Shown: positions 1 through 55,064, counted from the stretch's first letter. The stretch: DNA of 64,000 bases from a bacterium (GCA_030649835.1 JAUSES010000029.1:4130-68129), one strand, 5' to 3'. Made by a program: numbers and translations. Notes: generated by a model from the sequence alone, not told the origin.

Positions 1-3000
1 CCTGTGCCGTTGGTAAAGCGTGCAACTACTCCGGTTGCGGTTTGTGAGACATGCAATCGTTGCTCTGGGGTGGTGGTGCCAATTCCCACATTCACTGCAA
101 ACGCTCCTGTCCCACCCAAAATGAGCGTATTTGAAGCGGTAGCTTGCGCCAAATAACCGATCGCGGCTGCATTGACGAGGTTGTTTGGAGTAGTCACGGT
201 GCCATCAGTGTATCCAGAGCTATATCCAATAAAAGTGTTCTGGTAGCCAACTGTGTTTGCGTTTCCTGATTGATATCCGATTGCCACAGATGAAGTGCCC
301 GTAGTATTGCTTGCTAGGGCTGAGTCTCCGATTGCAGTGTTTTGAATCCCACTTGAATTTGAAAACAATGCCGATTCCCCAATTGCAGTATTAGAATAAC
401 CTATTGTATTTAGATTAAGAGCTGAGTATCCAATTGCTACATTGAAAAAGCCTGTAGTATTTGAAAAAAGCGCTCTCCATCCTATTGCCGTGTTGAAGTC
501 AGAAGAAGTAGCGACATTAAGCGCCTGATATCCTATCGCAGTATTCTGTGAGCCGTCTGAAAGAAGCGCTGCTCCAGCACCTATCCCCGCTAGTGTTGAA
601 AAGTTTGTCGATGAAGCATACAAAATAGTATTTCCTGCCTGCTTGTAGCCGGAGTATTGGTCAGTGTTGATGAAGCCTGAAACGTCGAGTTTGTAGCCGG
701 GGATAGTCGTCCCTATTCCAACATTGTTTGATGAGTAATCATACACGAATCCGTTTGTTTCCACTGCGAATCCTCCAGCAAAGGTCGAGGTGGCGGTGGT
801 GCTTGTTGCCGTAAGGTAGTTGACCGTGGGACTTGTTGAGGAAGTGAGCGTCGTTCCATCAGAATGGAGCCACCCTTGTCCGAAGGATGTTTGACCCGTG
901 CCTCCCTTTGCGACTGTGAGGGTGCCGGAGATTGTGGCAAGAGTAGTCGTCGCCACCCATGCAGGCAAGCCGTTTGAAACACCGAGGACGTATCCACCGG
1001 TACCAATGCTGAGTTTGTTTAATACGTTTGCAGAGCCAGAATAGAGGAGATCACCTGCGGTATAGGTGGAGAAACCGGTACCACCGTAGAACTGGGAGAG
1101 CGTGGAGCTTGCAGAAACGAGACCACTAATTGCTTGGAGTGGGCCAGTCAATGTACCGAGTGAGAAGTTTGAAGTGAAAAGGTTGGTTGAGGATGCAGTG
1201 GTGGAGAAGGAATTTGTTGAGGTTGCGCTCGTTGTCGTTGCATTCGTAGAAACTAGACTCGGGAAGGTGTTGTTTGAAGTGGTAGTTGCGGTGAAGAATG
1301 CCCCCACAACTTCGCCCACGACGGAGAGTTTCGCGTAGGGGGTGGTGGTACCAATTCCCACATTCACGGCGTCCGCTCCAGTGCCACCGAGGACGATCGT
1401 GTTTGATGCACCGACGCGGGCATTTTTCCCGATGGCGGTAATGTTGGTAAGAACAGAGGTGCTTGCAACCGTTTCAGAACGTGAGGCTTGGTAACCAAGA
1501 AACGTTGCAAACGTGTCGATGACGGACCGCTGATCCTGAGTTGTCCCATCTCCATATCCTGCCTGATAACCAAGAGCAGTTCCTCCTTGCCCCGTGGTGT
1601 TTGAATAGAATGTACGAAATCCGTTCACTGTATTGCTTCCTCCTGAAATATTAGAAAAAAGCGAGTCCACGCCGCTAGCCGTGTTACTCCCTCCTGTTGT
1701 ATTAGAGGACATTGCAGACCTACCAATCGCCGTGTTGTTTCCTCCTGTAGTATTAGTTAGGAGTGCATTCATTCCCACACCTGTGTTATTGCCAGCAGTA
1801 GTGTTTGCAAAAAGCGAGCGATATCCAAGAGCCGTATTGCTATCCGACGATGTCGCCACATTAAGCGCCTGGTACCCTATCGCAGTATTCTGTATGCCAT
1901 CAAAAAGGAGTGCTGCTCCAGCGCCATTTCCCACGAGCGTTGAGAAGCTGGTGGATGATGCATATAAAATAGTATTTCCTGCTTGCTTGTAGCCGGAGTA
2001 TTGGTCAGTGTTGATGAAGCCTGAAACGTCGAGCTTGTAGCCGGGGATAGTCGTCCCTATTCCAACATTGTTTGATGAGTAATCATACACGAATCCGTTT
2101 GTTTCCACTGCGAATCCTCCCGCAAACGTGGAAGTGGCGGTGGTAGAAGTGGCATTTATGATATTTGAAGTGATCGTCCCTGCAACCGCAAGCATCGACA
2201 TCGGACTTGTCGTACCAATTCCCACATTCACGGCGTCCGCTCCAGTGCCACCGAGGACGATCGTGTTTGATGCACCGACGCGGGCGTTTTTCCCGATGGC
2301 GGTGCCGTTGGTGAGTGCTGTTGTGGATGCGACAGATGCATCACGTGAGGCTTGAAAACCAAAAAATGTCATAAATGTATCAATCACCGACTGCTGGTCT
2401 AGAGTGGTGCCGTCTCCTACTCCTGCTTGATACCCGATAGCAGTAGAAGAGGCGCCGGTGGTGTTGAACTGTAGGGCACCGTATCCATTTGCGGTGTTGG
2501 AAGAGCCGGTGGTGTTCTGGTTGAGTGAATAACTTCCCTCTGCGGTATTGTTCTCGCCCGTGGTATTAGCAGCTAGAGATACCACTCCGTTTGCTGTGTT
2601 TAAAGAGCCGGTAGTATTGTTAGCAAGCGACTGATAACCGCTTGAGGTATTAGAAGCCCCCGTAGTATTCAAAGTAAGAGCCCTATTTCCGTTTGCTGTA
2701 TTGAAAAGACCAGTGGTATTAGCACGGAGTGCAAAATAGCCATTTGCGGTATTGTAAGAGCCTGTTGTATTTCCCGAAAGAGCCTGCGCCCCTATCGCGC
2801 TATTCTGAATACCACTCGTGTTTGCGGTGAGCGCTATATATCCTACTGCTGTATTGTAGTCGGTAGATGTTGCTGTGTAGAGAGTTTGATAACCTATTGC
2901 CACATTCCCATCTCCCGATGTGTTAGAGTAAAGTGATTGATAACCATTACCAAGATTAAAAAAGCCCGTTGTATTTGAATAGCCTGCTTGATATCCAGTA

Positions 3001-4148
3001 GCAGAATTGCTAAATCCTGTTGTATTTGAACGAAGTGATTCATTCCCATTTGCGGTGTTTTGATAACCAGTGGTATTAGCGTATAGTGCCTTAAATCCAT
3101 TTGCTGTGTTTCTATATCCAGTTGTGTTGGAGAAAAGAGATTGATACCCCATTGAAGTAGATGACGCGCCTGTCGTATTAGAAAAAAGCGATTGATAGCC
3201 ATTTGTAGTATTTTCAGAGCCCGTAGTATTAGAGTAAAGGGACTGGTACCCCACAGCAGTTTGGTTACTGACAGTGGTATTTGAGTAGAGGGACTGATAG
3301 CCAAAAGCAGTATTGTTGGAGCCGGTGGTATTTGAAGCAAGAGATTGAGAGCCATTTGCAGTATTGTTAGAGCCGGTGTTGGTTAAAGCAGAGAGAGTGC
3401 CATACCCAATTGCGGTATTATTAGAGCCCGTAGTGGCAAAAACAAGGGCACCAGAACCGTTCGCGGTATTGTAGGATCCCGTAGTATTTAGAGAAAGGGA
3501 TTGGTCGCCATGTGCGGTGTTATCTGTTCCTGTAGTATTAAGGGTTAAGGCACCACGACCAGTTGCAGTGTTGGAAAATCCTGTAGTATTGGAACGAAGA
3601 GCCTGAACTCCAACCGCGGTATTATTATCCGACGATGTCGCCACATTAAGCGCCTGATACCCGATCGCAGTATTCTGTATGCCATCAAAAAGGAGCGCCG
3701 CTCCTGCGCCATTTCCCACGAGCGTTGAGAAGCTGGTGGATGATGCATATAAAATAGTATTTCCTGCCTGCTTGTAGCCGGAGTATTGGTCAGTGTTGAT
3801 GAAGCCTGAAACGTCGAGTTTGTAGCTAGGAATAGTCGTTCCAATCCCCACGTTGTTTGTAAAATAATCGTACACAAGTCCACTCGTTTCTGTGGCGAAC
3901 CCACCTGCAAAAGTAGAGGTTGCAGTGCTGCTGGTTGCTGTAAAATATCCAGCCGAAGCTGAGGCTCCGAGATTTGAGACCGAAACAGTACAGTCAGTTG
4001 TTGTTGGAGAACATGTTGGATCAAGTGTTTCACCCGGTGCGTATAATGGTGCCGCGAATACTGTACTCGAAAAAGCAAACAAGGAAAAAACAAACACGTA
4101 GTATGTTTTTTTAAATAATGCAAATCTGCGCGGGTAGATTATTCGCAT
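1..4148 (-). CDS. giant secreted repeat protein (partial; C-terminus lies beyond the window start). It has a signal peptide, then three near-identical modules, each with a tail-fibre-like 'NNVGIGTTxPxYKLDVSG...' segment followed by long runs of 15-16-aa Hep_Hag/YadA-head-like repeats (consensus SNTTGxxNTAxGxxAL)
   Basis: Manual translation of the minus strand from ATG at 4148..4146, with a TGA stop just upstream and GAGGT 7 nt upstream. Codon phase was checked at positions 4100-3981, 3368 and 2240 and stays open to position 1. Every ORF-track ORF in this span is in a different frame, i.e. a shadow ORF. The ORF is absent from the track, apparently because it is edge-truncated. The N-terminus reads MRIIYPRRFALFKKTYYVFVFSLFAFSSTVFAAPLYAPG... 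(signal peptide). Confidence 0.75.
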   Translation of the reverse strand, partial: MRIIYPRRFALFKKTYYVFVFSLFAFSSTVFAAPLYAPGETLDPTCSPTTTDCTVSVSNLGASASAGYFTATSSTATSTFAGGFATETSGLVYDYFTNNVGIGTTIPSYKLDVSGFINTDQYSGYKQAGNTILYASSTSFSTLVGNGAGAALLFDGIQNTAIGYQALNVATSSDNNTAVGVQALRSNTTGFSNTATGRGALTLNTTGTDNTAHGDQSLSLNTTGSYNTANGSGALVFATTGSNNTAIGYGTLSALTNTGSNNTANGSQSLASNTTGSNNTAFGYQSLYSNTTVSNQTAVGYQSLYSNTTGSENTTNGYQSLFSNTTGASSTSMGYQSLFSNTTGYRNTANGFKALYANTTGYQNTANGNESLRSNTTGFSNSATGYQAGYSNTTGFFNLGNGYQSLYSNTSGDGNVAIGYQTLYTATSTDYNTAVGYIALTANTSGIQNSAIGAQALSGNTTGSYNTANGYFALRANTTGLFNTANGNRALTLNTTGASNTSSGYQSLANNTTGSLNTANGVVSLAANTTGENNTAEGSYSLNQNTTGSSNTANGYGALQFNTTGASSTAIGYQAGVGDGTTLDQQSVIDTFMTFFGFQASRDASVASTTALTNGTAIGKNARVGASNTIVLGGTGADAVNVGIGTTSPMSMLAVAGTITSNIINATSTTATSTFAGGFAVETNGFVYDYSSNNVGIGTTIPGYKLDVSGFINTDQYSGYKQAGNTILYASSTSFSTLVGNGAGAALLFDGIQNTAIGYQALNVATSSDSNTALGYRSLFANTTAGNNTGVGMNALLTNTTGGNNTAIGRSAMSSNTTGGSNTASGVDSLFSNISGGSNTVNGFRTFYSNTTGQGGTALGYQAGYGDGTTQDQRSVIDTFATFLGYQASRSETVASTSVLTNITAIGKNARVGASNTIVLGGTGADAVNVGIGTTTPYAKLSVVGEVVGAFFTATTTSNNTFPSLVSTNATTTSATSTNSFSTTASSTNLFTSNFSLGTLTGPLQAISGLVSASSTLSQFYGGTGFSTYTAGDLLYSGSANVLNKLSIGTGGYVLGVSNGLPAWVATTTLATISGTLTVAKGGTGQTSFGQGWLHSDGTTLTSSTSPTVNYLTATSTTATSTFAGGFAVETNGFVYDYSSNNVGIGTTIPGYKLDVSGFINTDQYSGYKQAGNTILYASSTNFSTLAGIGAGAALLSDGSQNTAIGYQALNVATSSDFNTAIGWRALFSNTTGFFNVAIGYSALNLNTIGYSNTAIGESALFSNSSGIQNTAIGDSALASNTTGTSSVAIGYQSGNANTVGYQNTFIGYSSGYTDGTVTTPNNLVNAAAIGYLAQATASNTLILGGTGAFAVNVGIGTTTPEQRLHVSQTATGVVARFTNGT

Positions 4149-4196
4149 AATACCTCATTCATATTATACACTATCTTCGGTGCGTATGACGAGCAA

Positions 4197-4249
4197 AAAT
4201 CAATAGATGGGGAGGTTCGCTACGCGCACCTCCCCATCTATTGATTTTC
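4197..4249. terminator. perfect 21-bp-stem hairpin with a CGCTACGCG apex, between the ends of two convergent/minus-strand genes
   Basis: aaaatcaatagatggggaggt-tcgctacgcgc-acctccccatctattgatttt. Confidence 0.5.
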
Positions 4250-4266
4250 GCTTTCTGACACACAAA

Positions 4267-6183
4267 TTAAACCTCAAACTTCTTCTGAATAATTCCTCTC
4301 GGTGCCTCAACTTCTTGCGAGAAATCTGCCTGTGCGTAGGAGCCATCCTGTCCTTTTCTCATCACGCCCACATTGTATGTTCCCTTTGCCACCAACATAT
4401 AGTATCTGCCGAGTGCATCGGTAATACTTTTTCGCACCTCAACCTTACTATCCGGATGGGAAACTTTCACGACGCCAAAAGCAAGAGGGAGCCCCGTCTC
4501 TTTTTCAATGACTACCCCATGCGGTCTGTCCCCAGTTCCTACCTTGCGGAGAACCCAAACAAAAACATACAGTCCCCAAATTGCAAAATTATACGGCTGA
4601 GGATCAATAAAAATAATAAAAAGAGTTACAATAAAACCAACTATAAATAGGATGCGCGATAGTCGCTCAATAAAAATAATATTACGCGAATAAAACCCCA
4701 TAAGGTGCTGTGTGCGTTTTGCATATTCGTTCCAGTCAAACCCTTCGGGGTCCATGGGAATATCACGCGCAAGAAATGCCCCACCTTCAGTTAGTATAAG
4801 AGGTTCCCCAAAATATAGATTTCCGTAAAACTCATCCGCTGTTTTCCCCGCAAGCACCGTTGACGGAAATTTATAATTTGTTTTATTTACTACAATGCGA
4901 TAGATCCCCGGGGGCGCAAAAAACCCATACCGTCCATCAAGGTCAGTAAATGCCGTCGCAACTTCTTTCCCCTCAAGGGTTTGCAGTTCAACATACGCAG
5001 GATCAAGTGGTTGTTTTGTCACACTGTCATACACAGCGCCCCATGGGCGATGACGACGTTTGAGCCCAAACACGGTGAGCAGGAGTCCCCACAGCTGTGC
5101 GGGAAGTAGGAGCAACTCAGAAAATGAAAATGCCTGCGCAAACAGAAGCGAAAAGAGAGACGTGGTTCCTCCCATCACTACACCAGCAGTAGTTACCGTA
5201 TTACTTGTAATCGCCCCCTGAGGTGTATCTAAAACTATTTTTGCCCCTTGCCGAACATTATCAACTGACTTACGCGCCTGTACCGTACTTCTGTTTACTG
5301 ATTCTTTTGCATTTGAAAATGCGGTGCCTATGCTCGTGATAATATTACCGACTTGTTCTGAAACAGTGTTAACCACTGACGAAAAAGTACCTCCTCCTCC
5401 GCCACCCCCACCAGATGACCCACTATTATTTTGCCCTCCATTTTGCCCTCCATCGGGAGAAGGAATTGGGATTGGAGTAGGGGTTGGTTCTAATGTAGGA
5501 GTTGGAGTTGGGGTGGGCGCAGGTTCTGGTACGGGTGTAGGTTCGGGTATCGGCGTTGGAGGAGGTGTTGGTTCTGGGGTCGGTTCTGACGTTGGTGTAG
5601 GTGGCACAACCACTGGTCCCCCTCCCACAGGATCCGTTTCATTATTGTCACCTGTCCCTGTACACCCAGGATCTGTGGGATAATCTACTTTCCCATCACT
5701 GTCATCATCAATAACATTGCTACACTGTGGAGGTAACCAGTTTGTTTGTACTTTGTGTGAGAGCGTGCCACACGTGCTATCTGTCGCGCAGCTAAAAACA
5801 AGCCAGCCTTTTGTTTCACTCCACGCATAGCCATTAAAGTTTCCCGATGCATCGATGGTCACCCCGCCATTTGTGGGCTTAAAATTTATCCAGCCTGTGT
5901 TTTGCCCCCATGCATACCCGGTAAGGACGCCACTTCCGTTGTTTGTCACACCGCCATTTGTGGGTGCCAAATTGATCCAGCCAAAATTTGTACTCCATGC
6001 GTAACCAGTTATGTTTCCGCTATTCACCACCACGCCACCATTCGTACTACCAAAATTCACCAAAGAATTGTCATCCAAAAACCGCGCATACTTGTTTGTT
6101 GTATCAATGGTCCCCGCAGATGTAAGAAGAGGGACGGCGAAAAAGAAAAAAAGAGTGAGGGCGAGACGCTTCATTGACAACAT
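4267..6183 (-). CDS. modular membrane/surface protein: signal peptide, four Trp-rich beta-repeats (GYAWSxxxGWINF), a Pro/Thr-rich linker, a Gly-rich tract, TM helices and two carboxypeptidase-regulatory-like (CarboxypepD_reg-type) domains
   Basis: ORF-track translation shows a PTPEPTP linker, a GGGGGGGG run, hydrophobic helices, and motifs 'DLDGRYGFFAPPGIYRIVV' and 'DALGRYYMLVAKGTYNVGV'. The track starts at a TTG; the true start is probably MKRLAL at ~6174. Confidence 0.6.
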   Translation of the reverse strand: MLSMKRLALTLFFFFAVPLLTSAGTIDTTNKYARFLDDNSLVNFGSTNGGVVVNSGNITGYAWSTNFGWINLAPTNGGVTNNGSGVLTGYAWGQNTGWINFKPTNGGVTIDASGNFNGYAWSETKGWLVFSCATDSTCGTLSHKVQTNWLPPQCSNVIDDDSDGKVDYPTDPGCTGTGDNNETDPVGGGPVVVPPTPTSEPTPEPTPPPTPIPEPTPVPEPAPTPTPTPTLEPTPTPIPIPSPDGGQNGGQNNSGSSGGGGGGGGTFSSVVNTVSEQVGNIITSIGTAFSNAKESVNRSTVQARKSVDNVRQGAKIVLDTPQGAITSNTVTTAGVVMGGTTSLFSLLFAQAFSFSELLLLPAQLWGLLLTVFGLKRRHRPWGAVYDSVTKQPLDPAYVELQTLEGKEVATAFTDLDGRYGFFAPPGIYRIVVNKTNYKFPSTVLAGKTADEFYGNLYFGEPLILTEGGAFLARDIPMDPEGFDWNEYAKRTQHLMGFYSRNIIFIERLSRILFIVGFIVTLFIIFIDPQPYNFAIWGLYVFVWVLRKVGTGDRPHGVVIEKETGLPLAFGVVKVSHPDSKVEVRKSITDALGRYYMLVAKGTYNVGVMRKGQDGSYAQADFSQEVEAPRGIIQKKFEV

Positions 6184-9854: not shown

Positions 9855-10907
9855 TTGCAGAACTGTCTTCAAAAGTATATATTGGGGCTCATGATAAATA
9901 TCAAAACCACCCTAAAAAACATTTCTGAAAGCGAAGTAGAGATTCTTTGTGAGGTTCCCTCTGACACATTTGAGAAAGAACGCCCTATTGCACTCAAGAA
10001 AATTGGTGAGGAAGTAACACTTCCGGGTTTTCGCAAGGGGCACGTGCCGGAGTCAATGATTGTTCAAAAATTTGGTGAGGCACTCATCCTCGAAGAAATG
10101 GCAAACCTCGCCATGGACCGCGCCTACAGCGAGATTTTAAATCGCCACAAGGTGAATGCGATTGCAATGCCAAATGTACAGATAAAAAAGCTCGCTATGG
10201 GTAACCCTTTTGAGTTCACACTCACCTTTCAAGTGATGCCTGAAATAAAACTTCCTGATTATAAAAAAATTGCAAAGGAAGTGATGACTATTACAGAAAA
10301 AACTGATGTTACCGACGAGGAAGTGGCGCAAGCAGAAAAGGAGCTCAGCAAACAATTTGCAACCAAAGATCCCGAGGGAAAAGAAGTTCTCCCAGAAATA
10401 ACCGACGAACTTGCACAGAAGTTTGGACCATTTAAAGATGTGGCAGAGTTCCGCACAAAAATCCGTGAGTCAATCGCCCATGAAAAAACAACTCGCGCTC
10501 GCGAAAAGAAACGTATGCAGATTATGGAAAAGGTTGCAGACGGTATCACCACAAAGCTTCCACAAGTATTAATAGACGGTGAGCTTGAGAGAATGATCGG
10601 TCAGTTCAAACACGATGTGGAACAAATGGGGATGAAGTTTGAAGACTACCTCGCGACCACAAAGAAAACTATTGAGGAAATGCGCAAAGAATGGACTTCC
10701 GACGCAGAGAAGCGCGCGAAAGTGCAAATAGCCCTCAACGAAATTTCTCTTTTAGAAAAAATTGAGCCACTTGCAGACGACATCGAGCGCGAATCCAAAT
10801 TTTTCCTCGAAAAATACCCCGACACCGATCCCGCACGTGTCCGCCTCCACCTCTCCATGATGCTCACCAATGAAAAAGTCTTCCAGTTTTTGGAAGCTCA
10901 AAAATAA
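9855..10907 (+). CDS. tig: trigger factor (short form; the PPIase domain appears reduced or absent)
   Basis: N-terminal ribosome-binding domain with the GFRKGHVP signature. The start is possibly MINIKTT at 9891. Confidence 0.75.
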   Translation: MQNCLQKYILGLMINIKTTLKNISESEVEILCEVPSDTFEKERPIALKKIGEEVTLPGFRKGHVPESMIVQKFGEALILEEMANLAMDRAYSEILNRHKVNAIAMPNVQIKKLAMGNPFEFTLTFQVMPEIKLPDYKKIAKEVMTITEKTDVTDEEVAQAEKELSKQFATKDPEGKEVLPEITDELAQKFGPFKDVAEFRTKIRESIAHEKTTRAREKKRMQIMEKVADGITTKLPQVLIDGELERMIGQFKHDVEQMGMKFEDYLATTKKTIEEMRKEWTSDAEKRAKVQIALNEISLLEKIEPLADDIERESKFFLEKYPDTDPARVRLHLSMMLTNEKVFQFLEAQK

Positions 10908-11340: not shown

Positions 11341-12042
11341 CTAATACACCACCTCAGGGTCTTCCTGTGTAATGAGTTCGTATGGGATAAGTTCATTGTC
11401 GCGACACAAAAAATATGGAAGTTGATTGTGGGTAAAGTTTACAATTTCATTCGTGTTTTTATCCTTCCACTTTGTTGCAATTTTTTTCATAAGCGACATC
11501 TCCTCTACAGAAAGTGTTCGTATCTTTTCATTTTTATTGCTATCTGATTCGCTCACGAGAAGCATGCCTTTGCCATCAGTATTTTTGCGGTCTATCACAA
11601 TTTTGCCAGACTCCTCAAGCTCGTCGAGTGCGCGAAAAAAGGTATCTGGTACGGGACCATATGAAATCTTCCGATACTGCATGCCACTCATACTTTCAAG
11701 ATGTTCATAGAACCACGCGAAATCTGCAAGATAAAGCAACTTCGCAAGTTTTGTTTTAGTTACTTTGCCGTCATCTTTTTGCGTTAGACTCATGCGTAGA
11801 AAAGAAAGGATCATGTGTTTGTACTTTTCAATGTCGGGGATGGTGCCAGAGAGTAGAGTATCCACTCCGATACTAAAAAAACTTGCGAGCTTCTTTACTT
11901 CATCCACATCAAGCGGTTGTTTCCCTGCCTCTATCGCTGTATATGTTGAGCGAGAAACACCTATCGCTGTGGCGACCTGTTCCTGCGAAAGCCCTCGCCC
12001 TACCCGAAGACTCTTTATGAATTGTGCATATTTATTAGTCAT
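11341..12042 (-). CDS. XRE-family HTH protein fused to a Panacea (DUF4065, SocA/PanA-like antitoxin) domain
   Basis: N-terminus LSQEQVATAIGVSRSTYTAIEAGKQ is an HTH_3 motif. KLAKLLYLADFAWF…YRKISYGPVPDTFF matches the Panacea signature KLxKLLYxAxxW…YGPV. The likely start is MTNKYAQ at 12042; the track ORF extends to a TTG at 12078. Confidence 0.6.
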   Translation of the reverse strand: MTNKYAQFIKSLRVGRGLSQEQVATAIGVSRSTYTAIEAGKQPLDVDEVKKLASFFSIGVDTLLSGTIPDIEKYKHMILSFLRMSLTQKDDGKVTKTKLAKLLYLADFAWFYEHLESMSGMQYRKISYGPVPDTFFRALDELEESGKIVIDRKNTDGKGMLLVSESDSNKNEKIRTLSVEEMSLMKKIATKWKDKNTNEIVNFTHNQLPYFLCRDNELIPYELITQEDPEVVY

Positions 12043-12173
12043 ACACAGATTATACACTGTTTTATGCACAGAAAGCAAGCAATTTTGGTCAAGAATTCAC
12101 ACAAAGGGTGGTATAATGAATGTGCTGGCGTAGTCGAGCCAGCACCTAAATTACTAGAAAATTCGTAGAATTT

Positions 12174-12781: not shown

Positions 12782-15487
12782 CTATTTACTCGTGTACTTC
12801 TTATATAGCTCAAATAAAAATTCAATGCGGGATTCTTTGGTGGGGAATTTTTTGTTGTAGCAGGCGTCGACGGCGCGGTCGAGGTCGGTGTGGGCTTTGA
12901 CGAGCTCGGGTGGCATGGTGTTGGGATCGTATAGATCAGCAAGTGAGCTATGTGGAAATTGCGCACGAGCATCAAGCACACCTTGTGCGGACTCCTCTAC
13001 TTTTTTCTTTTGTTCATCTAAAATATTTTCTGGCCAGGGGAAGTTGTTATAAACAATGTTGATTGAATAATTGTAGTCACTTTTTAATCTTCCACACACT
13101 CTATTAACCCATGTCATGTGCATCAAGGAACTAAGTATTCCAAAAATATATAATAAATTATCTGAAACAACTGATGCTCCTTTGTTGTTGATAACGACAT
13201 TTTTGTGCATAAATCCAATGGGGATTACATCCCTGCTTTCAGAAGAAATGAGTGGGAAAAATAAAAAATTTTCCTCTGGTTGTCTCCTCTCTGCAAAAAT
13301 GGCAGGTGTACTTGCTAATTTTTGAGTTGCTTCACGCGAACTTTCTAAGCGGTGATTTTTAGTCTTCTCAATTCTTTCTAAAACCATCGGCATCATTCTT
13401 AATTTTGAAGGCTCAACACCAACAAGCCACAAGCAATATCGTTTTCTGCTGTTAATTAGTTCCTCAGATCCAATATACTCTCTAAAATACTCTGCACTTT
13501 GTGGTTCAGAATTAACGAACTCGAGGTACTCTTCTTTTGTAAAAATAAGATTACCTCCGTCATTCGGCATACTTCCAAAATTCATTTCTGGGACATTACA
13601 AATGGGCTTTCTGCGACTTTCCAAAAAAATATCATTTCCTTCTGAAAGATACGAGTTGATCTTTTTAACTTCTTTTTCCTTTGGCTCGCTTTTTATTGTC
13701 TCGTATTCATAGAGATATTTTTTAGAAGTCTCCACTGTCGCAAAACCCACAATGACACAATACACAGCTGCAACTCCAGGCGCATCATTATTCCATTTGA
13801 ATGTCTGATGTGCGAAGTGAATTACAATGCCATATTTTTCTTTTAATCTCTTCCACAAAATTCCCACTTGCTCACCTTGGCAGATTGAGTTAGTAGAAAC
13901 GAACGCGGTTTTGATATTGGTACCAACCATATATCGTGATGCCTTTTCATACCATGCAGTTACAAAATCCAAATTGCCTGCACCTTTTGCATTATCAAAA
14001 ATACTCAAGAACACCTCTTTTTGCCCTTTGCTCATTATTCGAGCGCCCACAAAAGGCGGATTACCGAGGATGTACGAGAGTTTGTGCTTGGGTACAACTT
14101 CTTCCCATTTTCTAGTAAGCGCGTTATCATTTACAATTGTCGCTGGTTCACGAAGCGGTAAGCGCAGGTATGGAATGCCAAATTTTGCCGAGAGCTCGTT
14201 GTTCATCTGATGATCTACAAGATACATTGCCGTGCGCGCAATCAGCGCTGGCGACTCCTCTATTTCTATTCCATAAAACTGATTAACATTGAGGAGCGAG
14301 AGGTCTTCGGTGCCAAACATTCTCATCTGTCCTGTTTTATTTTTTATATCAAGGATTTCGAGCTCAAGCCTGCGAAGTTCGCGATACGTAACCACAAGGA
14401 AGTTGCCGCAGCCGCACGCTGGGTCGAGGAATGTGAGCTTTGCAAGCTTTTGATGAAATGCATCAAGTTTTTTTGGATCATACTTCGCTTGATCAAATTC
14501 AACATACAACTCATCAAGAAAAAGTGGTTGAATGACTTTTAAAATATTTTTTTCAGAAGTATAGTGGGCTCCGAGCTGACGTCGACTATCTTCGTTCATT
14601 ACCCCTTGGAACAGGGAGCCGAAAATAGATGCTGATATTTCTGACCAACCAAAACTGCAACACTTCACGAGCTTTAGGCGCGCTCCTGCATCCAAAGATA
14701 CTGGAGCGATACGTTCCGCAAAAACTCCGCCGTTGATGTGTGGGAATGCGTTTAACTGCTCATCGAGATTTGTTTGTCGCTTTTCTCGTGGAGTGTTGAG
14801 GACTTCAAAAATTTGGAGCAAGTGAATGCCTAAATCACTACCGTCTATATTTGTGCGGTCTTCTATATAGGTGCGAAACTGCCCTTGCTGAAATATTCCA
14901 GTGTCCTCGGCAAAGAGGCAGAACAATATACGTGCGAGAAAAACATCAAGGTCATGCCCGCTGTATCCCGTCTTTGCAATCTCGTTGTGAAAATCCGCCA
15001 TCAATTTTGCCGCCTTGATGCTTGCCTCTTCTTCTTTTTCATAATGACGAACAGTATACCCAGAAATGAACCCAAAAAGTTCTATGTTTTTATGTAAATC
15101 TTTAAGCAAAAATTCTTCGTGCTTATTTTCTTCCAAGTCATATACTCGTATTTTTTCAAAATCGGAAACAACAATATAGCGTGGTAGCTCTGCGTTTTTT
15201 AATCCCGGGATATAGTCCTTTGCTTGAGCATATGCTTTGTCGAGGTCTTTGCCTCGCGACTTGTGTTCCGCAAGCATCACCCCTTTCCAGAGAACGTCGA
15301 TAAACCCCTGCGCGCCATCCTGCTTTTTAACATTATATTCAAATGCTGCGACCCTGCGACGAGGAACGCCAAAAACCTCAAAAAATCCGTCCCAAAAACT
15401 TTTTGCTTCTGCGTCTTCGTTGCATTCTCGCTCCCATTCGTGGGCAAAAACGAGGGCGCGGTTTCGTATTTCGTTGAGACTTATCAT
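12782..15487 (-). CDS. Type IIG/IIL single-polypeptide restriction-modification enzyme, MmeI family (N-terminal PD-ExK nuclease, N6-adenine methyltransferase, TRD)
   Basis: FIDVLWKGVMLAEHKSRGKDL matches the MmeI nuclease D-x9-E-x-K motif. LDPACGCGNFLV is motif I. GNPPFVG is motif IV (N6-A methyltransferase). The C-terminal LADLYDP…AH.DLD..V tail is MmeI-like. Length is ~900 aa. Start ATG at 15487 with GGAGG upstream. Confidence 0.75.
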   Translation of the reverse strand: MISLNEIRNRALVFAHEWERECNEDAEAKSFWDGFFEVFGVPRRRVAAFEYNVKKQDGAQGFIDVLWKGVMLAEHKSRGKDLDKAYAQAKDYIPGLKNAELPRYIVVSDFEKIRVYDLEENKHEEFLLKDLHKNIELFGFISGYTVRHYEKEEEASIKAAKLMADFHNEIAKTGYSGHDLDVFLARILFCLFAEDTGIFQQGQFRTYIEDRTNIDGSDLGIHLLQIFEVLNTPREKRQTNLDEQLNAFPHINGGVFAERIAPVSLDAGARLKLVKCCSFGWSEISASIFGSLFQGVMNEDSRRQLGAHYTSEKNILKVIQPLFLDELYVEFDQAKYDPKKLDAFHQKLAKLTFLDPACGCGNFLVVTYRELRRLELEILDIKNKTGQMRMFGTEDLSLLNVNQFYGIEIEESPALIARTAMYLVDHQMNNELSAKFGIPYLRLPLREPATIVNDNALTRKWEEVVPKHKLSYILGNPPFVGARIMSKGQKEVFLSIFDNAKGAGNLDFVTAWYEKASRYMVGTNIKTAFVSTNSICQGEQVGILWKRLKEKYGIVIHFAHQTFKWNNDAPGVAAVYCVIVGFATVETSKKYLYEYETIKSEPKEKEVKKINSYLSEGNDIFLESRRKPICNVPEMNFGSMPNDGGNLIFTKEEYLEFVNSEPQSAEYFREYIGSEELINSRKRYCLWLVGVEPSKLRMMPMVLERIEKTKNHRLESSREATQKLASTPAIFAERRQPEENFLFFPLISSESRDVIPIGFMHKNVVINNKGASVVSDNLLYIFGILSSLMHMTWVNRVCGRLKSDYNYSINIVYNNFPWPENILDEQKKKVEESAQGVLDARAQFPHSSLADLYDPNTMPPELVKAHTDLDRAVDACYNKKFPTKESRIEFLFELYKKYTSK

Positions 15488-15541
15488 GTGTTTTACGTCC
15501 TCCAAGTATACGCCCAATTGTTTTTAATACAAAACGTGCGA

Positions 15542-18414: not shown

Positions 18415-19566
18415 CTAAAGCAGGTACTCCGGCCATGTATCTTTATTGATCACTTTAATACCTAAATTCTTAAATCTCTTTGCAAAAGCTTCTCTAGTTA
18501 ATGCATTAACCTTACTATCTTGCCATTTGCATTCAAAAGCATTGATATATTCACTTTTTCTTTCAACTATATCCACCTCACTCCCGCTATAGGTGCGCCA
18601 AAAACACATATCGACTGATTCATTTTCATGACGATATTTCTTGAGTCGTTCAATAAATACAAAATTTTCCCACAGTTGTCCGATGTCAGTGCGATTTTCA
18701 ATTTGTGCAAAGTTACTTACCACTGCATTACGAATACCGAGATCAACAAAATAGTATCGTTTATTTTTCCCAATTTCGTTTCTTTCGTTCTCAGTATTTA
18801 CGCTTGTTGAAGATGCAATAATGAATGATTTTTCTAAAATACCAATATATTTTTCTACTGTAGTTCGCGACAGCTGTACCCTTGTTGCAATCTCGTTAAT
18901 AGACACATCGTGCCCAATTTGGAGTGCCAACATTTTAAGCACACTTCTAATTCCTTCATGATTTCTTACCCCCTCAAATTCAAGAATGTCTTTATACAAA
19001 TACGCTTGCGTGATATCACGCATCATTATTTCTTTTAGCTTCGTATCATTTTCTTTGCGTATTGCTGGATAATTACCGTATACCAAAACATCGTGAACGA
19101 CCGAAAGCGTCATCACTCGCCCCAAAGTGAGGTCTATCTCGTGCATATCAAGAGGATAGAGATTGAGATAGCTTGCCCTTCCCGTGAGTGGCTCCGTGGT
19201 ATGGTGCGCGAGTCCGAAAGCAGAAGAACCTGTCACTATAAAAATGGCATCCTTATATGTATCCACCAAGAACTTTAAGGTAAGTCCCGGCTCTTCCAAA
19301 TACTGAGCCTCATCTATGATCACCAATTTTGCATTATTGAGGATCGGCGACACTCTCCCTATTGTTCGTGAGGAAAGCTCCTTTGCTGCAATCCGGTCAT
19401 CCCCCTGTAGCCAAACCTTTTTGCCAGAATAGGCGTCAAAATAATCTCGCAGTAGTGTTGTTTTTCCTGCCTGACGCGGTCCATAGACAACAAGGACTTT
19501 TCCTTCTCGCGCAAATTTTTCAATGTTCTTAGATTGTCTGCGAATGAATTTCATTACTGAAAGCAT
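18415..19566 (-). CDS. AAA+ ATPase with a C-terminal DUF4143-like domain (ATP-binding protein)
   Basis: Walker A VVYGPRQAGKTTLL, Walker B VIIDEAQ; the architecture is typical of AAA_14/DUF4143 proteins. Confidence 0.65.
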   Translation of the reverse strand: MLSVMKFIRRQSKNIEKFAREGKVLVVYGPRQAGKTTLLRDYFDAYSGKKVWLQGDDRIAAKELSSRTIGRVSPILNNAKLVIIDEAQYLEEPGLTLKFLVDTYKDAIFIVTGSSAFGLAHHTTEPLTGRASYLNLYPLDMHEIDLTLGRVMTLSVVHDVLVYGNYPAIRKENDTKLKEIMMRDITQAYLYKDILEFEGVRNHEGIRSVLKMLALQIGHDVSINEIATRVQLSRTTVEKYIGILEKSFIIASSTSVNTENERNEIGKNKRYYFVDLGIRNAVVSNFAQIENRTDIGQLWENFVFIERLKKYRHENESVDMCFWRTYSGSEVDIVERKSEYINAFECKWQDSKVNALTREAFAKRFKNLGIKVINKDTWPEYLL

Positions 19567-52553: not shown

Positions 52554-55064
52554 ATGAACAACTCAAAAGAAACATTTGAATTTAAACCTCATCTGCAAGA
52601 AATTTCTGATGTAGAAGTCATCGGCACCCCTTCAACATTGGACTCAACAAACCCAAATAAGCCTGCGGAAGCAGCGAGCTACGGCATGGGTGCCCACTTT
52701 GAAAAGGCAGGAATCACAGCAGCAAGCTTTCCTGCTGAAAAACCAGAGGCGCCTGTCGCCTCTGCGGCAAACGAGACTTTTGAAAAAGGCACGGCCGGGA
52801 CAGTGAACGAGAATAAGGCTCCTCGCGGTGGAAGAGGGACAAAAGGGGCGCCAGATGAAATCAAAGAAGCTATTGAGGAGGCACAGAAAATAGAAGTCAA
52901 AATTGACCACGATTTTGCAAAACTAAAGAAGCACAAGGATGATCTCGTTCGTACGCTCGCCAAACTTCACCTTCAAGAAACTGAGGCCCTGAGGCGTGGG
53001 GTTTCTCTTGATCTTCAAAAAAAACTACGAGGCAAGGTAGATAGAGCTCAAGCAAGCCTTGATAAAATAAATGGCATTCTTCCAAAGACAACAGAAAATG
53101 GTGCGCCGAGCGAACATCAGGCTATTTTAAAAATAGTTGAAGATTATAGAAAAAATAAAGATGTCCTTAAAAAACTTTATTCAAAAATAGGAAAGGCAGA
53201 AAACGACCTTAAGAAAAAGCCGGGGGACGGCAGGATACAAGGAGAGGAAAATCGCGCTCAAGCAGAAAAGGCAATCGTGGAAACAAACCTTGCAAAAATT
53301 GCAGCCGATGCTGAGCAACTACTTGCAAAAACAGAGGCTCCATCGCTTTCAGAAGAGGCGGGGCTTTCATACACACACGCACAAGCTGTTGCCGACCGCA
53401 AGGAATGGGAAGAGCGTCACAAAAATGCGCAGGCAGATGCCGTGCTTGAATCAGTGCCAGCAGAGAATGAAATTGAGTTTGAGTCACAAGCAGTAGAAAA
53501 ATCAGCACAAGAAAACTACGCGGAGGGGTGGGAGCGTATTTGGGGTAAAAAAGAAACAGAAAAAAACAATTCAGAAATTCCCACCCTTACCGAGGTGGTT
53601 GAGGAGCCAATTGCAAAATTTGAATTGTCCGAAAGAGCGCGAAGTGGTCTCAACCCTGAACAACTAGAACTTTTTGAGAAGGTGCAGGAAGGAATTTCTA
53701 ATGCGGAAAAATCCGCCACAGAGCAAGTAAAAAAAGCAGGGATGCCAGAAAAAATGTTGGGTCTTTTACGCAAAGGTGGGGAGTCATATTCAAAGTTGCC
53801 ACTAAAAACAAAACTTCTTGTTTCTATAGCACTCTTTGGAGTAGCGTGGGCAGCAGGCGGAACCATTGCGAGCGTAGCAATAGGAGGTTCTGCTATCCAG
53901 CGCGCCCTCGGTGGTATGGCAACATTTGTCGCAGCAGAAGGGGCATTGAAAGCAAGTGCGGAAAAGGGTGGGGGTGGGCGTGGAAAATTTGAAAAATCTC
54001 GACACACCGCGGAAGCTCTGCTTGCCGGGTTCCTCGTTGGAGGTGGGGCACTCGGTCTTGCTATCAATAATGCTTTGGCTGAAGGACTCCCTTCTCATGA
54101 AACAGCAACCGCGCCTGTGGAAACTGATGCTGAAAAAATTGAAAAGTTGCGATCAGAAATAATGCCTAAAGCAAATCTTGCAGCGCTTGATACTGCACCA
54201 AATACTGACTACACTGCTGTCGCAGAGGCAGGGGATTCTCGTTGGACTCTCGTGGGCGAGGCCCTTGCCAAGGGCCCTTACGAAAAGGAGTTCAGTCTTC
54301 TTCCTCAAGGTCAGCAGGAATACGTCATTGATGCAATCAAGGATAAACTTACTGCGGGAATGACCGCGGAACAAGCGAATATGCTGAACGTAGGAGATGA
54401 AATTGATTTCAAAGAAATTTTTGCAGACAAGGATTTCATAGAGAAAACGTTTGCTGATGCGCAAAACCTCAGCACGCCGGAGCTCGAAAATATTGCGAAT
54501 TACAATCCTGATGAAGTTGCAGATGCGCCCACGGTTAAGGAAATTTTTGAACCTAAAGTAATGGATTTTTCTCCCCACGGTGCGCTTGAGGGGTCATCTT
54601 CTCCAGTACCAACAATTCCATCAGAAATTCTTCCGGGAGATCCTCCAAAAATTATAGAAAACTTCTCTCTTGAAAACCTTTCTACTCCAGATGCTCCCAC
54701 GCTAACTGAAAATCTAGCTTCAATATCTCCTATTTTTACGCCGAGCGATCCACAGATTCTTATTTACGCAAAAGAGGTAACAGACAATAATATACAATCA
54801 GTTTTTGGTAAGGTGGGTGGGTTTCTTGGATTTGGTTCTTCAGACGGGCAAGAAATATTTAAAAACTTTGCCGACAAGCCGGTTGACCAATTTATTGGAA
54901 CGAAGGCTCCGTCAGTACTTACTGTGGATGAAGGAAAAATGAAAGAACTAATTGAAAAATCAGTTGAGCAGACGCATGTCAAATCAATGCCTGGAGAAAA
55001 GGTTGTGGATTATTTAAACCGCTCTGCAGCAATCAACATTGAAAGGTTCACAAAAAACGGTTAA
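52554..55064 (+). CDS. large coiled-coil protein (836 aa) with central Gly/Ala-rich TM segments
   Basis: ORF. The N-terminal ~400 aa are K/E-rich helical. TM-like segments LLVSIALFGVAWAAGG… and LLAGFLVGGGALGLAI. Confidence 0.5.
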   Translation: MNNSKETFEFKPHLQEISDVEVIGTPSTLDSTNPNKPAEAASYGMGAHFEKAGITAASFPAEKPEAPVASAANETFEKGTAGTVNENKAPRGGRGTKGAPDEIKEAIEEAQKIEVKIDHDFAKLKKHKDDLVRTLAKLHLQETEALRRGVSLDLQKKLRGKVDRAQASLDKINGILPKTTENGAPSEHQAILKIVEDYRKNKDVLKKLYSKIGKAENDLKKKPGDGRIQGEENRAQAEKAIVETNLAKIAADAEQLLAKTEAPSLSEEAGLSYTHAQAVADRKEWEERHKNAQADAVLESVPAENEIEFESQAVEKSAQENYAEGWERIWGKKETEKNNSEIPTLTEVVEEPIAKFELSERARSGLNPEQLELFEKVQEGISNAEKSATEQVKKAGMPEKMLGLLRKGGESYSKLPLKTKLLVSIALFGVAWAAGGTIASVAIGGSAIQRALGGMATFVAAEGALKASAEKGGGGRGKFEKSRHTAEALLAGFLVGGGALGLAINNALAEGLPSHETATAPVETDAEKIEKLRSEIMPKANLAALDTAPNTDYTAVAEAGDSRWTLVGEALAKGPYEKEFSLLPQGQQEYVIDAIKDKLTAGMTAEQANMLNVGDEIDFKEIFADKDFIEKTFADAQNLSTPELENIANYNPDEVADAPTVKEIFEPKVMDFSPHGALEGSSSPVPTIPSEILPGDPPKIIENFSLENLSTPDAPTLTENLASISPIFTPSDPQILIYAKEVTDNNIQSVFGKVGGFLGFGSSDGQEIFKNFADKPVDQFIGTKAPSVLTVDEGKMKELIEKSVEQTHVKSMPGEKVVDYLNRSAAINIERFTKNG

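Follow-up and report, generated by a model that had tools for sequence, protein, structure and literature searches.

A candidate S74-matured surface fibre encoded among housekeeping genes of a Patescibacterium of the Candidatus Yonathbacteria lineage

The DNA analysed here (the window) is a stretch of 64,000 nucleotides from a bacterial contig (GCA_030649835.1 JAUSES010000029.1:4130-68129), which opens with a large gene on the minus strand. The frame runs from an ATG at 4148-4146 to the window edge, giving 1382 codons and no stops, and the remaining frames over the same stretch contain 42–97 stops each. A sequence-only reading had reported an uninterrupted frame of more than 1380 residues with no entry in the ORF track; both points hold, with the strand, which it left unstated, being the minus strand, and the gene is missing from the ORF list because the listing tool omits ORFs running off an end. 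The full ORF sought in that reading is present in NCBI as a 1608-residue protein (P0001), already named ‘tail fiber domain-containing protein’. All features described below are on the minus strand.

A GAGG ribosome-binding site, read from the sequence, lies 4 nt before the ATG (4153-4156), preceded by a sigma-70-like promoter (TCGTCA-18-TATAAT, 4163..4192) identified by consensus match in a promoter scan, in which 10 of 12 positions agree, although about one match is expected by chance in the short region scanned. Adjacent to this, a hairpin and U-run at 4192..4252 likely form the intrinsic terminator of the upstream 638-aa gene, with a folding energy of -47 kcal/mol (z = -12.2) that none of 200 shuffled sequences equalled. 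This hairpin was missed by a pattern scanner, probably by exceeding its loop and stem limits, and was read from the sequence directly; it likely insulates the fibre gene. The flank encodes NusA, pyrophosphatase, trigger factor, RNase Y and UvrD, and no phage gene was found among the 60 kb of housekeeping genes on the upstream (visible) side, nor any DNA similarity to phage records. The context of the fibre gene is chromosomal and non-phage. Retrieval by way of the neighbouring gene gave a 4.4-kb Logan contig, which ends inside the fibre gene.

The signal peptide previously proposed is recognisable by inspection of the translation (aa 1–33, 4050..4148, including the start codon) as MRIIYPRRFALFKK, a 17-residue hydrophobic stretch and the predicted Sec cleavage site VFA/A, the leader having five basic residues and small residues at -3 and -1. 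Equivalent leaders occur in relatives, each ending just ahead of the same mature N-terminal Cys-loop motif, here APLYAPGETLDPTCSPTTTDCTV (aa 34–56, 3981..4049), which is common to Patescibacterial relatives and directly follows the leader in P0036, P0037, L047, L058 (three tandem genes), L061 and P0265. Only aa 34–66 (∼33 residues) are specific to the N-terminus.

The rest of the windowed protein consists of three modules, as had been claimed, with heads that open with ATSTFAGGFA at aa 76, 671 and 1119 and correspond to DNA repeats 3583-3882, 1798-2097 and 454-753. The module 1 head (aa 67–158, 3675..3950), a copy of the three-member DNA repeat family D1, comprises a TATSSTATSTFAGGF junction, the capping-loop motif NVGIGTTIPSYKLDV and a conserved FINTDQYSGYKQAGNTILYASST block. 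It is followed by a shaft of 25 tandem 17-residue repeats (aa 159–584, 2397..3674), delimited by register and consensus, whose 51-nt periodicity is DNA repeat family D2, and by a cap (SVIDTFMTFFGFQASRD...TAIGKNARVGASNTIVLGGTGADAVNVGIGTTSPMSMLAVAG, aa 585–657, 2178..2396, DNA repeat families D3 and D4) that is conserved in Bacteroidota and Patescibacteria relatives. Module 2 contains a head (aa 658–753, 1890..2177) placed by repeat and alignment comparison, a shaft of 7 tandem 17-residue repeats modelled as a left-handed β-roll (aa 754–872, 1533..1889) and a cap ending in NVGIGTTTPYAKLSVVG (aa 873–945, 1314..1532), delimited by DNA repeats and register, with a pLDDT of 58–84 in the structure model. 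A Ser/Thr-rich linker with two ‘GGTG’ units (aa 946–1105, 834..1313) leads to module 3, in which the head (aa 1106–1201, 546..833; repeat and alignment comparison) and a shaft of 6 tandem 17-residue repeats (aa 1202–1303, 240..545; register and consensus) precede a cap and predicted fibre tip (aa 1304–1382, 3..239), cut by the window edge and followed on full-length P0001. In this last cap, NVGIGTTTPEQRLHVSQTATGVVARF can be aligned to the Bdellovibrio Bd3182 capping loop, and the capping-loop motif NVGIGTTxPxxxL occurs in six copies, at module boundaries.

Dozens of short SNTTGxxNTAxGxxAL repeats had been described with a length of 15–16 residues; the repeats are there, but the period is 17 residues (51 nt), with 38 in-register copies (25+7+6) of consensus NTA[IN]GYQ[AS]Lx[SA]NTTGxx, in which Gly5 is invariant. 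The structure model, a monomer, has a mean pLDDT of 69, with heads and linker poorly modelled, and a Foldseek search of it against the PDB returned nothing significant. A separate AlphaFold monomer model of the linker (aa 945–1125) was unusable (mean pLDDT 50, pTM 0.21), and only 32 relatives of the linker were found in databases, mostly gene fragments from Patescibacteria-like contigs.

At the DNA level the module heads share exact runs of 62–86 nt at most, and the identity blocks of more than 100 bp reported earlier are near-identical only (90–94 %), though the module 2 head does match that of module 3 over 173 nt and that of module 1 over 155 nt at ≥97 % identity, a third such stretch being 88 nt long. 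Away from the identical patches, regular differences at third codon positions separate the copies, so the ‘recent intragenic duplication’ suggested from these blocks is too simple, and the pattern points to old duplicates with gene-conversion patches. The near-identical patches allow in-frame recombination, which could homogenise the modules or alter their number. The same stretches (88–173 nt at ≥97 % identity, common to the three heads) raise the question of whether the three-module arrangement, as opposed to the gene itself, is partly an artefact of short-read assembly and the true module number different. In an independent Logan assembly (SRR13727527) the contig breaks off 351 nt inside the gene, exactly at the start of the repeated head, and the ORF would stay open if joins fell within identical in-frame blocks. 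Exact repeats of no more than 86 nt are, however, below usual reads and k-mers, each module has unique flanks and its own repeat count, the identical 1608-aa protein in NCBI derives from a 92-kb contig, and multi-module relatives occur on megabase contigs, a 993-kb chromosome carrying a two-module relative and Draconibacterium a five-module one. We therefore consider an assembly artefact improbable.

The likeness of the shafts to Hep_Hag/YadA heads, also proposed from the sequence, fares less well. Pfam models for Hep_Hag, YadA_head, HIM and YadA_stalk gave no match even at E≤1, while the same scan does find PF05658 in the relative P0117, within a distinct region of 14-residue repeats; alignment of the 17-mers to these 14-mers with hhalign gave a probability of 0.4 %, a crude value from short ungapped profiles. 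Pfam and NCBIfam scans of the window fragment returned no adhesin family. Their single match there, RodZ_C, was marginal, scoring at its cut-off in the fragment and under it in the full protein, and was deemed spurious. The repeats differ in period (17 against 14 residues) from the heads of trimeric autotransporter adhesins such as YadA, UspA1, BpaC, BoaA, EibD and CbpF, while the modelled monomer has a similar left-handed parallel β-roll fold. The protein also lacks the neck, stalk and C-terminal β-barrel anchor of these adhesins: no Pfam match to YadA_anchor was found on P0001, which instead ends in S74, coiled coil, a small domain and a Pro/Thr-rich tail. Patescibacteria are described as a monoderm phylum (PMC11665869), so an outer membrane to take a barrel would be lacking, and trimerisation would presumably come from S74 rather than type Vc secretion.

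Beyond the window, P0001 continues through Ser1398, the S74 domain (1398–1452), a coiled coil, a small Cys-containing domain and a Pro/Thr/Glu-rich tail to aa 1608. Peptidase_S74 (PF13884) matches full-length P0001 at aa 1398–1452 with an E value of 2.3e-17 (63.4 bits against a cut-off of 22), and has no match in the window-only fragment, the domain lying outside it. A Ser1398/Lys1403 dyad is formed by SDATLK at 1398–1403, which fits the SDxxxK cleavage-site motif (PMC10769870), aligns with SDRRIK of 6f45 and SDERLK of 8jov, and has Thr where the common SDxRxK variant has a conserved Arg. Sequence matches in the PDB comprise the chaperone region of phage S16 gp37 (6f45, 2e-6), the tail fibre 8jov (3e-6), MyRF (7dc3, 0.007) and 8ojn. 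From the known behaviour of S74 domains, the C-terminus of P0001 would be a self-cleaving folding domain of the phage tail-fibre type, with autocleavage predicted. An assignment of the alternative C-terminal domain found in relatives P0062, P0044, P0097 and P0118 to Peptidase_G2 was unsupported by Pfam or PDB sequences.

As to the resemblance to phage tail fibres noted from the sequence, Peptidase_S74 and PHROG families 23837, 6002 and 4636 all match the protein, the strong tail-spike and virion-structural matches mapping onto the module 1 shaft. A tblastn search with the full protein returned 583 phage records, including Pelagibacter phage tail fibres (module 2 alone gave no phage match, probably through low-complexity masking), and among 77 BFVD matches at E≤1e-3 it is S74 proteins of Caudovirales that give the best viral structural matches. 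Fibres and tailspikes of phages that end in an intramolecular chaperone (K1F endosialidase, T5 pb1, S16 gp37, the tail fibre of Pelagibacter phage HTVC111P/112P, the fibre of Prochlorococcus phage P-SSM2 and SPO1 gp2.52) have the S74 domain in common with this protein; the repeat-plus-S74 layout also recurs among them, with 31–42 % identity over the aligned parts, and predicted structures agree. Taken with the NCBI name and a gene neighbourhood seen on the upstream side only, these matches could be read as pointing to a tail fibre of a phage or prophage, or to a fibre from a tailocin or another particle derived from phages, lying by chance at the window edge. Unlike phage fibres, however, the protein has no virion-attachment N-terminal domain and begins with a signal-peptide-like leader, which is kept in relatives and would be out of place on a virion protein. 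The gene is preceded by a promoter-like site of its own, behind the likely terminator, and by 60 kb of phage-free housekeeping genes, and the relatives in Kaiserbacteria and MAG ELA743 have cellular genes (cell-division, glycolysis, tRNA-synthetase) on both flanks. The Kaiserbacteria relative sits between MraW/FtsI/Mur ligase and RmuC; in L058, pyruvate kinase and HisRS enclose the three tandem paralogues. A phage origin of this kind is, in our view, very improbable.

Cell-encoded S74 fibres used to handle other bacteria have an experimental precedent in the mosaic adhesive trimer (MAT) fibres of Bdellovibrio bacteriovorus (Caulton et al. 2024, PMC10769870). Like Bd3182 (PDB 8OJN, S74 subgroup), the protein described here is cell-encoded, carries a predicted N-terminal signal peptide, is a fibre of ∼1000 residues or more and ends in an S74 chaperone-protease with SDxxxK. 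A VG.G..xP...L capping-loop motif, aligning residue for residue, is common to both, with NVGIGTTTPEQRLHV...VARF aligning ungapped with RVGVGTTAPTSALHV...VARF of Bd3182 (8ojn), though only at E 0.35, and similarity is weak outside S74 and the capping loop. Both systems have several paralogues per genome, and both belong to an organism that has to attach to other bacteria. The differences lie at the N-terminus and in the shaft. MAT fibres have a conserved β-rich domain of ∼130 residues immediately behind the signal peptide, where here, comparing by description, there is a 23-residue Cys-loop motif, and what follows aa 34–66 is the head (aa 67–158) that recurs at aa 658 and 1106. MAT shafts are intertwined trimeric β-helices, in contrast to the mostly 17-residue repeats modelled here as YadA-head-like β-rolls. 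Bdellovibrio is moreover a diderm predator and the present organism a monoderm Patescibacterium, a group not included in the list of MAT-bearing taxa (PMC10769870). Our literature searches found no paper on S74 fibres in Patescibacteria. For these ultrasmall bacteria the known means of finding and holding a host are mainly type IV pili, with a few adhesins from Saccharibacteria in culture (PMC11665869, PMC10633639); the adhesins reported as essential in Southlakia belong to other types (VCBS, dockerin, FN3).

We suggest, with a probability of about 0.6, that the product of this gene is exported by Sec and forms a subunit of a homotrimeric fibre on the surface of a Patescibacterium of the Candidatus Yonathbacteria lineage. 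As in K1F endosialidase, T5 pb1 and Bd3182, the S74 intramolecular chaperone would bring three chains into register and fold them from the C-terminus, and would then cut itself off at Ser1398 to leave a mature fibre of ∼1364 residues per chain with its tip exposed. From the model, the repeat runs may form YadA-head-like left-handed β-rolls of 25, 7 and 6 turns, totalling ∼18 nm if the rise per turn is ∼4.8 Å, and the connectors between them are probably trimeric segments with swapped strands. If the protein behaves as Bdellovibrio MAT and phage tail fibres do, its N-terminus would stay at the cell; an uncleaved leader could hold it there, as could the conserved Cys-loop motif or a partner, for example the adjacent membrane protein. 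The C-terminal tip or roll surfaces may bind a ligand on another cell or surface, leading to attachment. If no cleavage takes place, it may instead be the Pro/Thr-rich C-terminal tail that lies next to the wall.

A role in attachment is plausible but putative. An exported, S74-matured fibre could alternatively serve as a structural coat or spacer, act as a fibre of a biofilm matrix or bind to abiotic or ice-like surfaces, its flat β-roll faces lined with Thr, Asn and Ser acting generically without a specific receptor. This we regard as unlikely: the characterised proteins with an S74 end (phage and MAT fibres), and those sharing the roll fold with trimeric autotransporter heads, are all binding devices, and the diversified paralogues, several to a small genome, look like recognition repertoires.

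The fibre module is present in ∼38,000 protein clusters, and with the protein itself already deposited the gene is much less unusual than it had been made to appear; it belongs to a large, already annotated family rather than a new kind of system. Its practical value is accordingly modest, the family being enormous and auto-annotated, and lies mainly in a sound annotation and in giving antibodies or host pull-downs a target rather than in a new mechanism. The attachment-fibre reading nonetheless provides a concrete, testable host-attachment candidate in the uncultured Yonathbacteria lineage, with the predicted S74 self-cleavage at Ser1398 as a biochemical handle, and would extend to a monoderm phylum the MAT-fibre idea of a cell borrowing phage fibre architecture to grip bacteria. 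More tentatively, and on balance doubtfully, non-Saccharibacteria Patescibacteria may recognise hosts by repertoires of S74-matured trimeric fibres in which a lineage-specific Cys-loop anchor replaces the MAT N-terminal domain and in-frame recombination of the heads varies fibre length and composition; if so, recombination between heads would tune which hosts can be reached. In a scan of genome contigs the best relatives were 46–64 % identical, with three fibre loci on one 993-kb Kaiserbacteria chromosome and four in one Wolfebacteria MAG.

Translation of all six frames over bases 1–4400 of the window leaves a single open one, on the minus strand, which runs from an ATG at 4148–4146 to the window edge as 1382 stop-free codons, while the remaining five carry 42–97 stops each. 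The large edge-truncated gene proposed in the sequence-only reading is therefore real and lies where it was placed, on a strand left unstated then and now assigned as minus, and with neither stop nor frameshift in 1–4148. It is absent from the ORF list because the ORF tool leaves out ORFs running off an end. A database search recovered the complete, 100% identical protein (P0001, 1608 aa) from a 91,997-bp NCBI MAG contig, so the window misses the final 226 residues. In NCBI P0001 is already named ‘tail fiber domain-containing protein [bacterium]’; the protein itself, deposited, automatically named and one of a vast family, is unsurprising to a specialist.

The architecture that emerges, to which we give a probability of roughly 0.85, begins with a leader (aa 1–33) judged Sec-like by inspection, with five basic residues, a 17-residue hydrophobic core and the sequence VFA/A. 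Directly after it lies a Cys-loop motif (aa 34–56, APLYAPGETLDPTCSPTTTDCTV), found in the same position in the related proteins P0036, P0037 and P0265, at the related loci L047 and L061 and in three tandem genes of locus L058. Three modules follow, as had been proposed, their heads beginning at residues 67, 658 and 1106. Every head contains a TATSTTATSTFAGGF junction, an NVGIGTTIPxYKLDV motif and the block FINTDQYSGYKQAGNTILYASST, the last identical across all three, and is succeeded by tandem repeats (25, 7 and 6 copies in modules 1, 2 and 3) of consensus NTA[IN]GYQ[AS]Lx[SA]NTTGxx, in which Gly5 is invariant (38/38). The dozens of short repeats seen earlier are thus present, but their period is 17 residues rather than 15–16, consistent with a 51-nt spacing in the DNA. 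Each run is closed by a cap (…SVIDTF.TF.G.QASR…TAIGKNARVGASNTIVLGGTGADAVNVGIGTT.P…L.V), corresponding to DNA repeat families D3 and D4. Beyond the window lie a Peptidase_S74 domain (aa 1398–1452; Pfam score 63.4 bits, cut-off 22, E 2.3e-17) with its SDxxxK dyad, S1398…K1403, then a coiled-coil segment and a small domain with two Cys residues, before the chain ends in a tail rich in Pro, Thr and Glu. Thr makes up 16% of the protein, Ser 11% and Asn 9%, and every repeat holds an N-T-T sequon, often with N-T-A/S too; from these motifs, the roll surface could conceivably be heavily glycosylated, as some autotransporter adhesins are.

Between modules 2 and 3 runs a linker rich in Ser and Thr (aa 946–1105; window 834–1313) that contains two ‘GGTG’ units, has only 32 relatives in the database and gives an unusable monomer model (pLDDT 50). 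Its unit, ‘GGTG…GQGWL.SDG…STSPTVNY.TATSTTATSTF’, recurs in many short ENA gene calls (P0265, P0241–P0252) that resemble frameshifted fragments of giant genes. A Taylorbacteria fragment joins the unit directly to the Cys-loop N-terminus, which suggests cassette-like shuffling of heads, GGTG units and N-termini.

Profile searches of Pfam and NCBIfam matched Peptidase_S74 and returned no adhesin family, with no match to Hep_Hag/YadA_head, HIM, stalk or anchor. Among PHROGs, virion-structural and tail-spike families matched strongly (E 1e-79 to 1e-106). Module 2 was modelled with AlphaFold on an alignment of 25 sequences; the model has a mean pLDDT of 69 (76–91 across the repeats) and predicts a β-roll with two short strands per 17 residues. 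Against predicted viral structures it gave 77 matches at E≤1e-3, led by proteins from tailed phages and giant viruses labelled ‘intramolecular chaperone auto-processing domain’ and ‘Peptidase S74’. One relative, P0117, does have genuine Hep_Hag repeats of 14 residues in another part of its chain, and in a crude profile comparison these bear no similarity to the 17-mers of the fibre protein. The Hep_Hag/YadA-head resemblance first noted from sequence consequently survives as a predicted roll but not as a family: on the model, the 17-residue repeats are YadA-head-like in fold, yet form a separate sequence family with a period of their own. A true trimeric autotransporter is excluded: anchor, neck and stalk are all missing, and the organism’s phylum is described as monoderm (PMC11665869).

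The motif NVGIGTTxPxxxL occurs six times, at module boundaries, and its last copy aligns without gaps, albeit weakly (E 0.35), to the ‘capping loop’ of Bd3182 (PDB 8ojn), one of the mosaic adhesive trimer (MAT) fibres of Bdellovibrio bacteriovorus. The capping loop is an S74-associated feature also present in MyRF (Caulton et al., PMC10769870), which both bears out and refines the earlier suggestion of a motif typical of tail-fibre C-termini. In the relatives P0062, P0044, P0097 and P0118, the first 64% identical to the fibre protein across the module-3 head, S74 is replaced by another conserved C-terminal domain with motifs A[DE]xY…GD[LV]V…G[IV]VS[TK]xPG… and long Pro/Thr tails behind it; neither Pfam nor the PDB sequences gave a match to this domain. 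Judged from these sequences, the alternative C-terminus probably represents tip or chaperone swapping among close relatives.

At the DNA level the three heads are 79–87% identical over 300 nt. The blocks of more than 100 bp described as shared between modules are near-identical (90–94%) but not exactly so, with longest exact runs of 62–86 nt; the longest stretches of ≥97% identity span 173 nt (modules 3 and 2), 155 nt (2 and 1) and 88 nt (3 and 1). Beyond such patches, head copies differ regularly at third codon positions with the protein unchanged. A simple recent intragenic duplication does not fit this third-position divergence, conserved protein and patchy homogenisation; it is consistent with old duplicates that purifying selection has maintained and gene conversion has homogenised in patches. 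As the patches are in frame, recombination between them could alter module number, which does vary in relatives: one in P0036 (65% identity over the C-terminal 365 residues), two in P0037 and five in Draconibacterium proteins. An independent Logan assembly stops 351 nt inside the fibre gene, at the start of the first repeated head, and there is a small chance that the module count is partly a misassembly.

In a set of 1.84 billion, module 2 on its own retrieves 38,255 cluster representatives at E≤1e-3, a number that falls to 3,080 at E≤1e-30. A genome scan gave 77 loci, about 30 in Patescibacteria (spanning Kaiser-, Wolfe-, Adler-, Falkow-, Levyi- and Saccharibacteria) and about 27 in Bacteroidota, with others including Ignavibacteria, Acidobacteriota, Verrucomicrobiota and Bdellovibrionota, and often several per genome. 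Relatives are also encoded in 583 phage records, including Pelagibacter phage tail fibres at 41–42% identity, indicating a building block common to viral and cellular fibres.

A prophage or tailocin fibre is a rival reading. The window is otherwise housekeeping (NusA, pyrophosphatase, trigger factor, RsmE, RNase Y, CCA-adding enzyme, UvrD), with a two-component system, five tRNAs and an MmeI-type restriction enzyme, and its DNA has no match to phage records; NusA shares 92% identity with Candidatus Yonathbacteria proteins, and all its named top matches are Patescibacteria. In a 993-kb Kaiserbacteria chromosome the neighbours of a two-module relative are MraW/FtsI/Mur ligase on one side and RmuC on the other. 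On the 580-kb contig of MAG ELA743 (L058, 7789–17347, plus strand), three tandem paralogues of 1024, 1010 and 1120 aa, with near-identical leaders and Cys-loop N-termini and an S74 end in each, are flanked by pyruvate kinase/IMPDH and HisRS; by analogy they look to be a MAT-like repertoire in a small genome. Although the context of the fibre gene itself was read on the upstream side, its downstream flank lying beyond the window, these cellular contexts and the leader make a prophage or tailocin origin distinctly unlikely.

The fibre gene is preceded by a hairpin of very high stability and a U-run (−47 kcal/mol, z −12), then by a promoter-like TCGTCA-18-TATAAT and a GAGG site, and it probably has its own promoter. 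The product of the adjacent upstream gene on the same strand (4267–6183, minus) is an envelope protein of 638 aa, which combines a leader, three GYAWSxxxGWINFxPTNGGVT repeats and a long Pro/Thr linker with ~3–4 membrane segments and CarboxypepD_reg domains. In L047 (Paceibacterota) a homologue with 50% identity likewise precedes the fibre gene, and in L001 a weak match to its repeat adjoins the fibre gene; this membrane protein could be a partner or anchor of the fibre.

The closest characterised system is the S74 subgroup of the Bdellovibrio MAT family, likewise cell-encoded, signal-peptide-bearing (here by prediction), S74-terminated, furnished with capping loops and multi-copy. The fibre protein differs in lacking the ~130-aa MAT N-terminal domain and in its shaft of predicted 17-residue rolls, and Patescibacteria are absent from the table of MAT-bearing taxa in PMC10769870. 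Our literature search found no description of S74 fibres in Patescibacteria; in Southlakia, a cultured Saccharibacterium, the essential adhesins belong to other types. By comparison with the S74 domains of K1F endosialidase, T5 pb1 and Bd3182, three chains would, after Sec export, be aligned in register and folded from the C-terminus, whereupon the S74 chaperone would release itself by cleavage at Ser1398 and expose the tip. In the model, the 38 turns would give ~18 nm of roll if the rise is ~4.8 Å per turn, interrupted by connectors that are probably strand-swapped, which would explain the poor monomer models of heads and linker. As in MAT and phage fibres, the N-terminus would be cell-proximal, with an uncleaved leader, the Cys-loop motif and the neighbouring membrane protein as candidate anchors, and the C-terminal tip distal and ligand-binding. 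A role in attachment, argued by analogy, is tentative, at somewhat under even odds. A non-adhesive coat or matrix fibre is a more doubtful reading, to which the lack of a detected receptor domain, an ice-binding roll among the top structural matches and the many homologues in free-living phyla all lend weight. The attachment reading provides a well-defined candidate fibre for an uncultured lineage.

Elsewhere in the window, an 836-aa ORF (52554–55064, plus) has a hydrophilic N-terminus, no leader and no Pfam family at E≤1e-5. The trigger factor (9855–10907, plus) is only 350 aa long, with Trigger_N (17–161) and Trigger_C (196–330) ~35 residues apart, and appears to lack the central PPIase domain. 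An HTH and SocA/Panacea antitoxin-like gene (11341–12078, minus) adjoins that for the MmeI-type restriction-modification enzyme (12782–15517, minus), which is complete with all five MmeI domains and is followed by a DUF4143 AAA ATPase (18415–19566); lying in a lower-GC stretch (0.38–0.41), these genes together resemble a small patch of defence or mobile genes.
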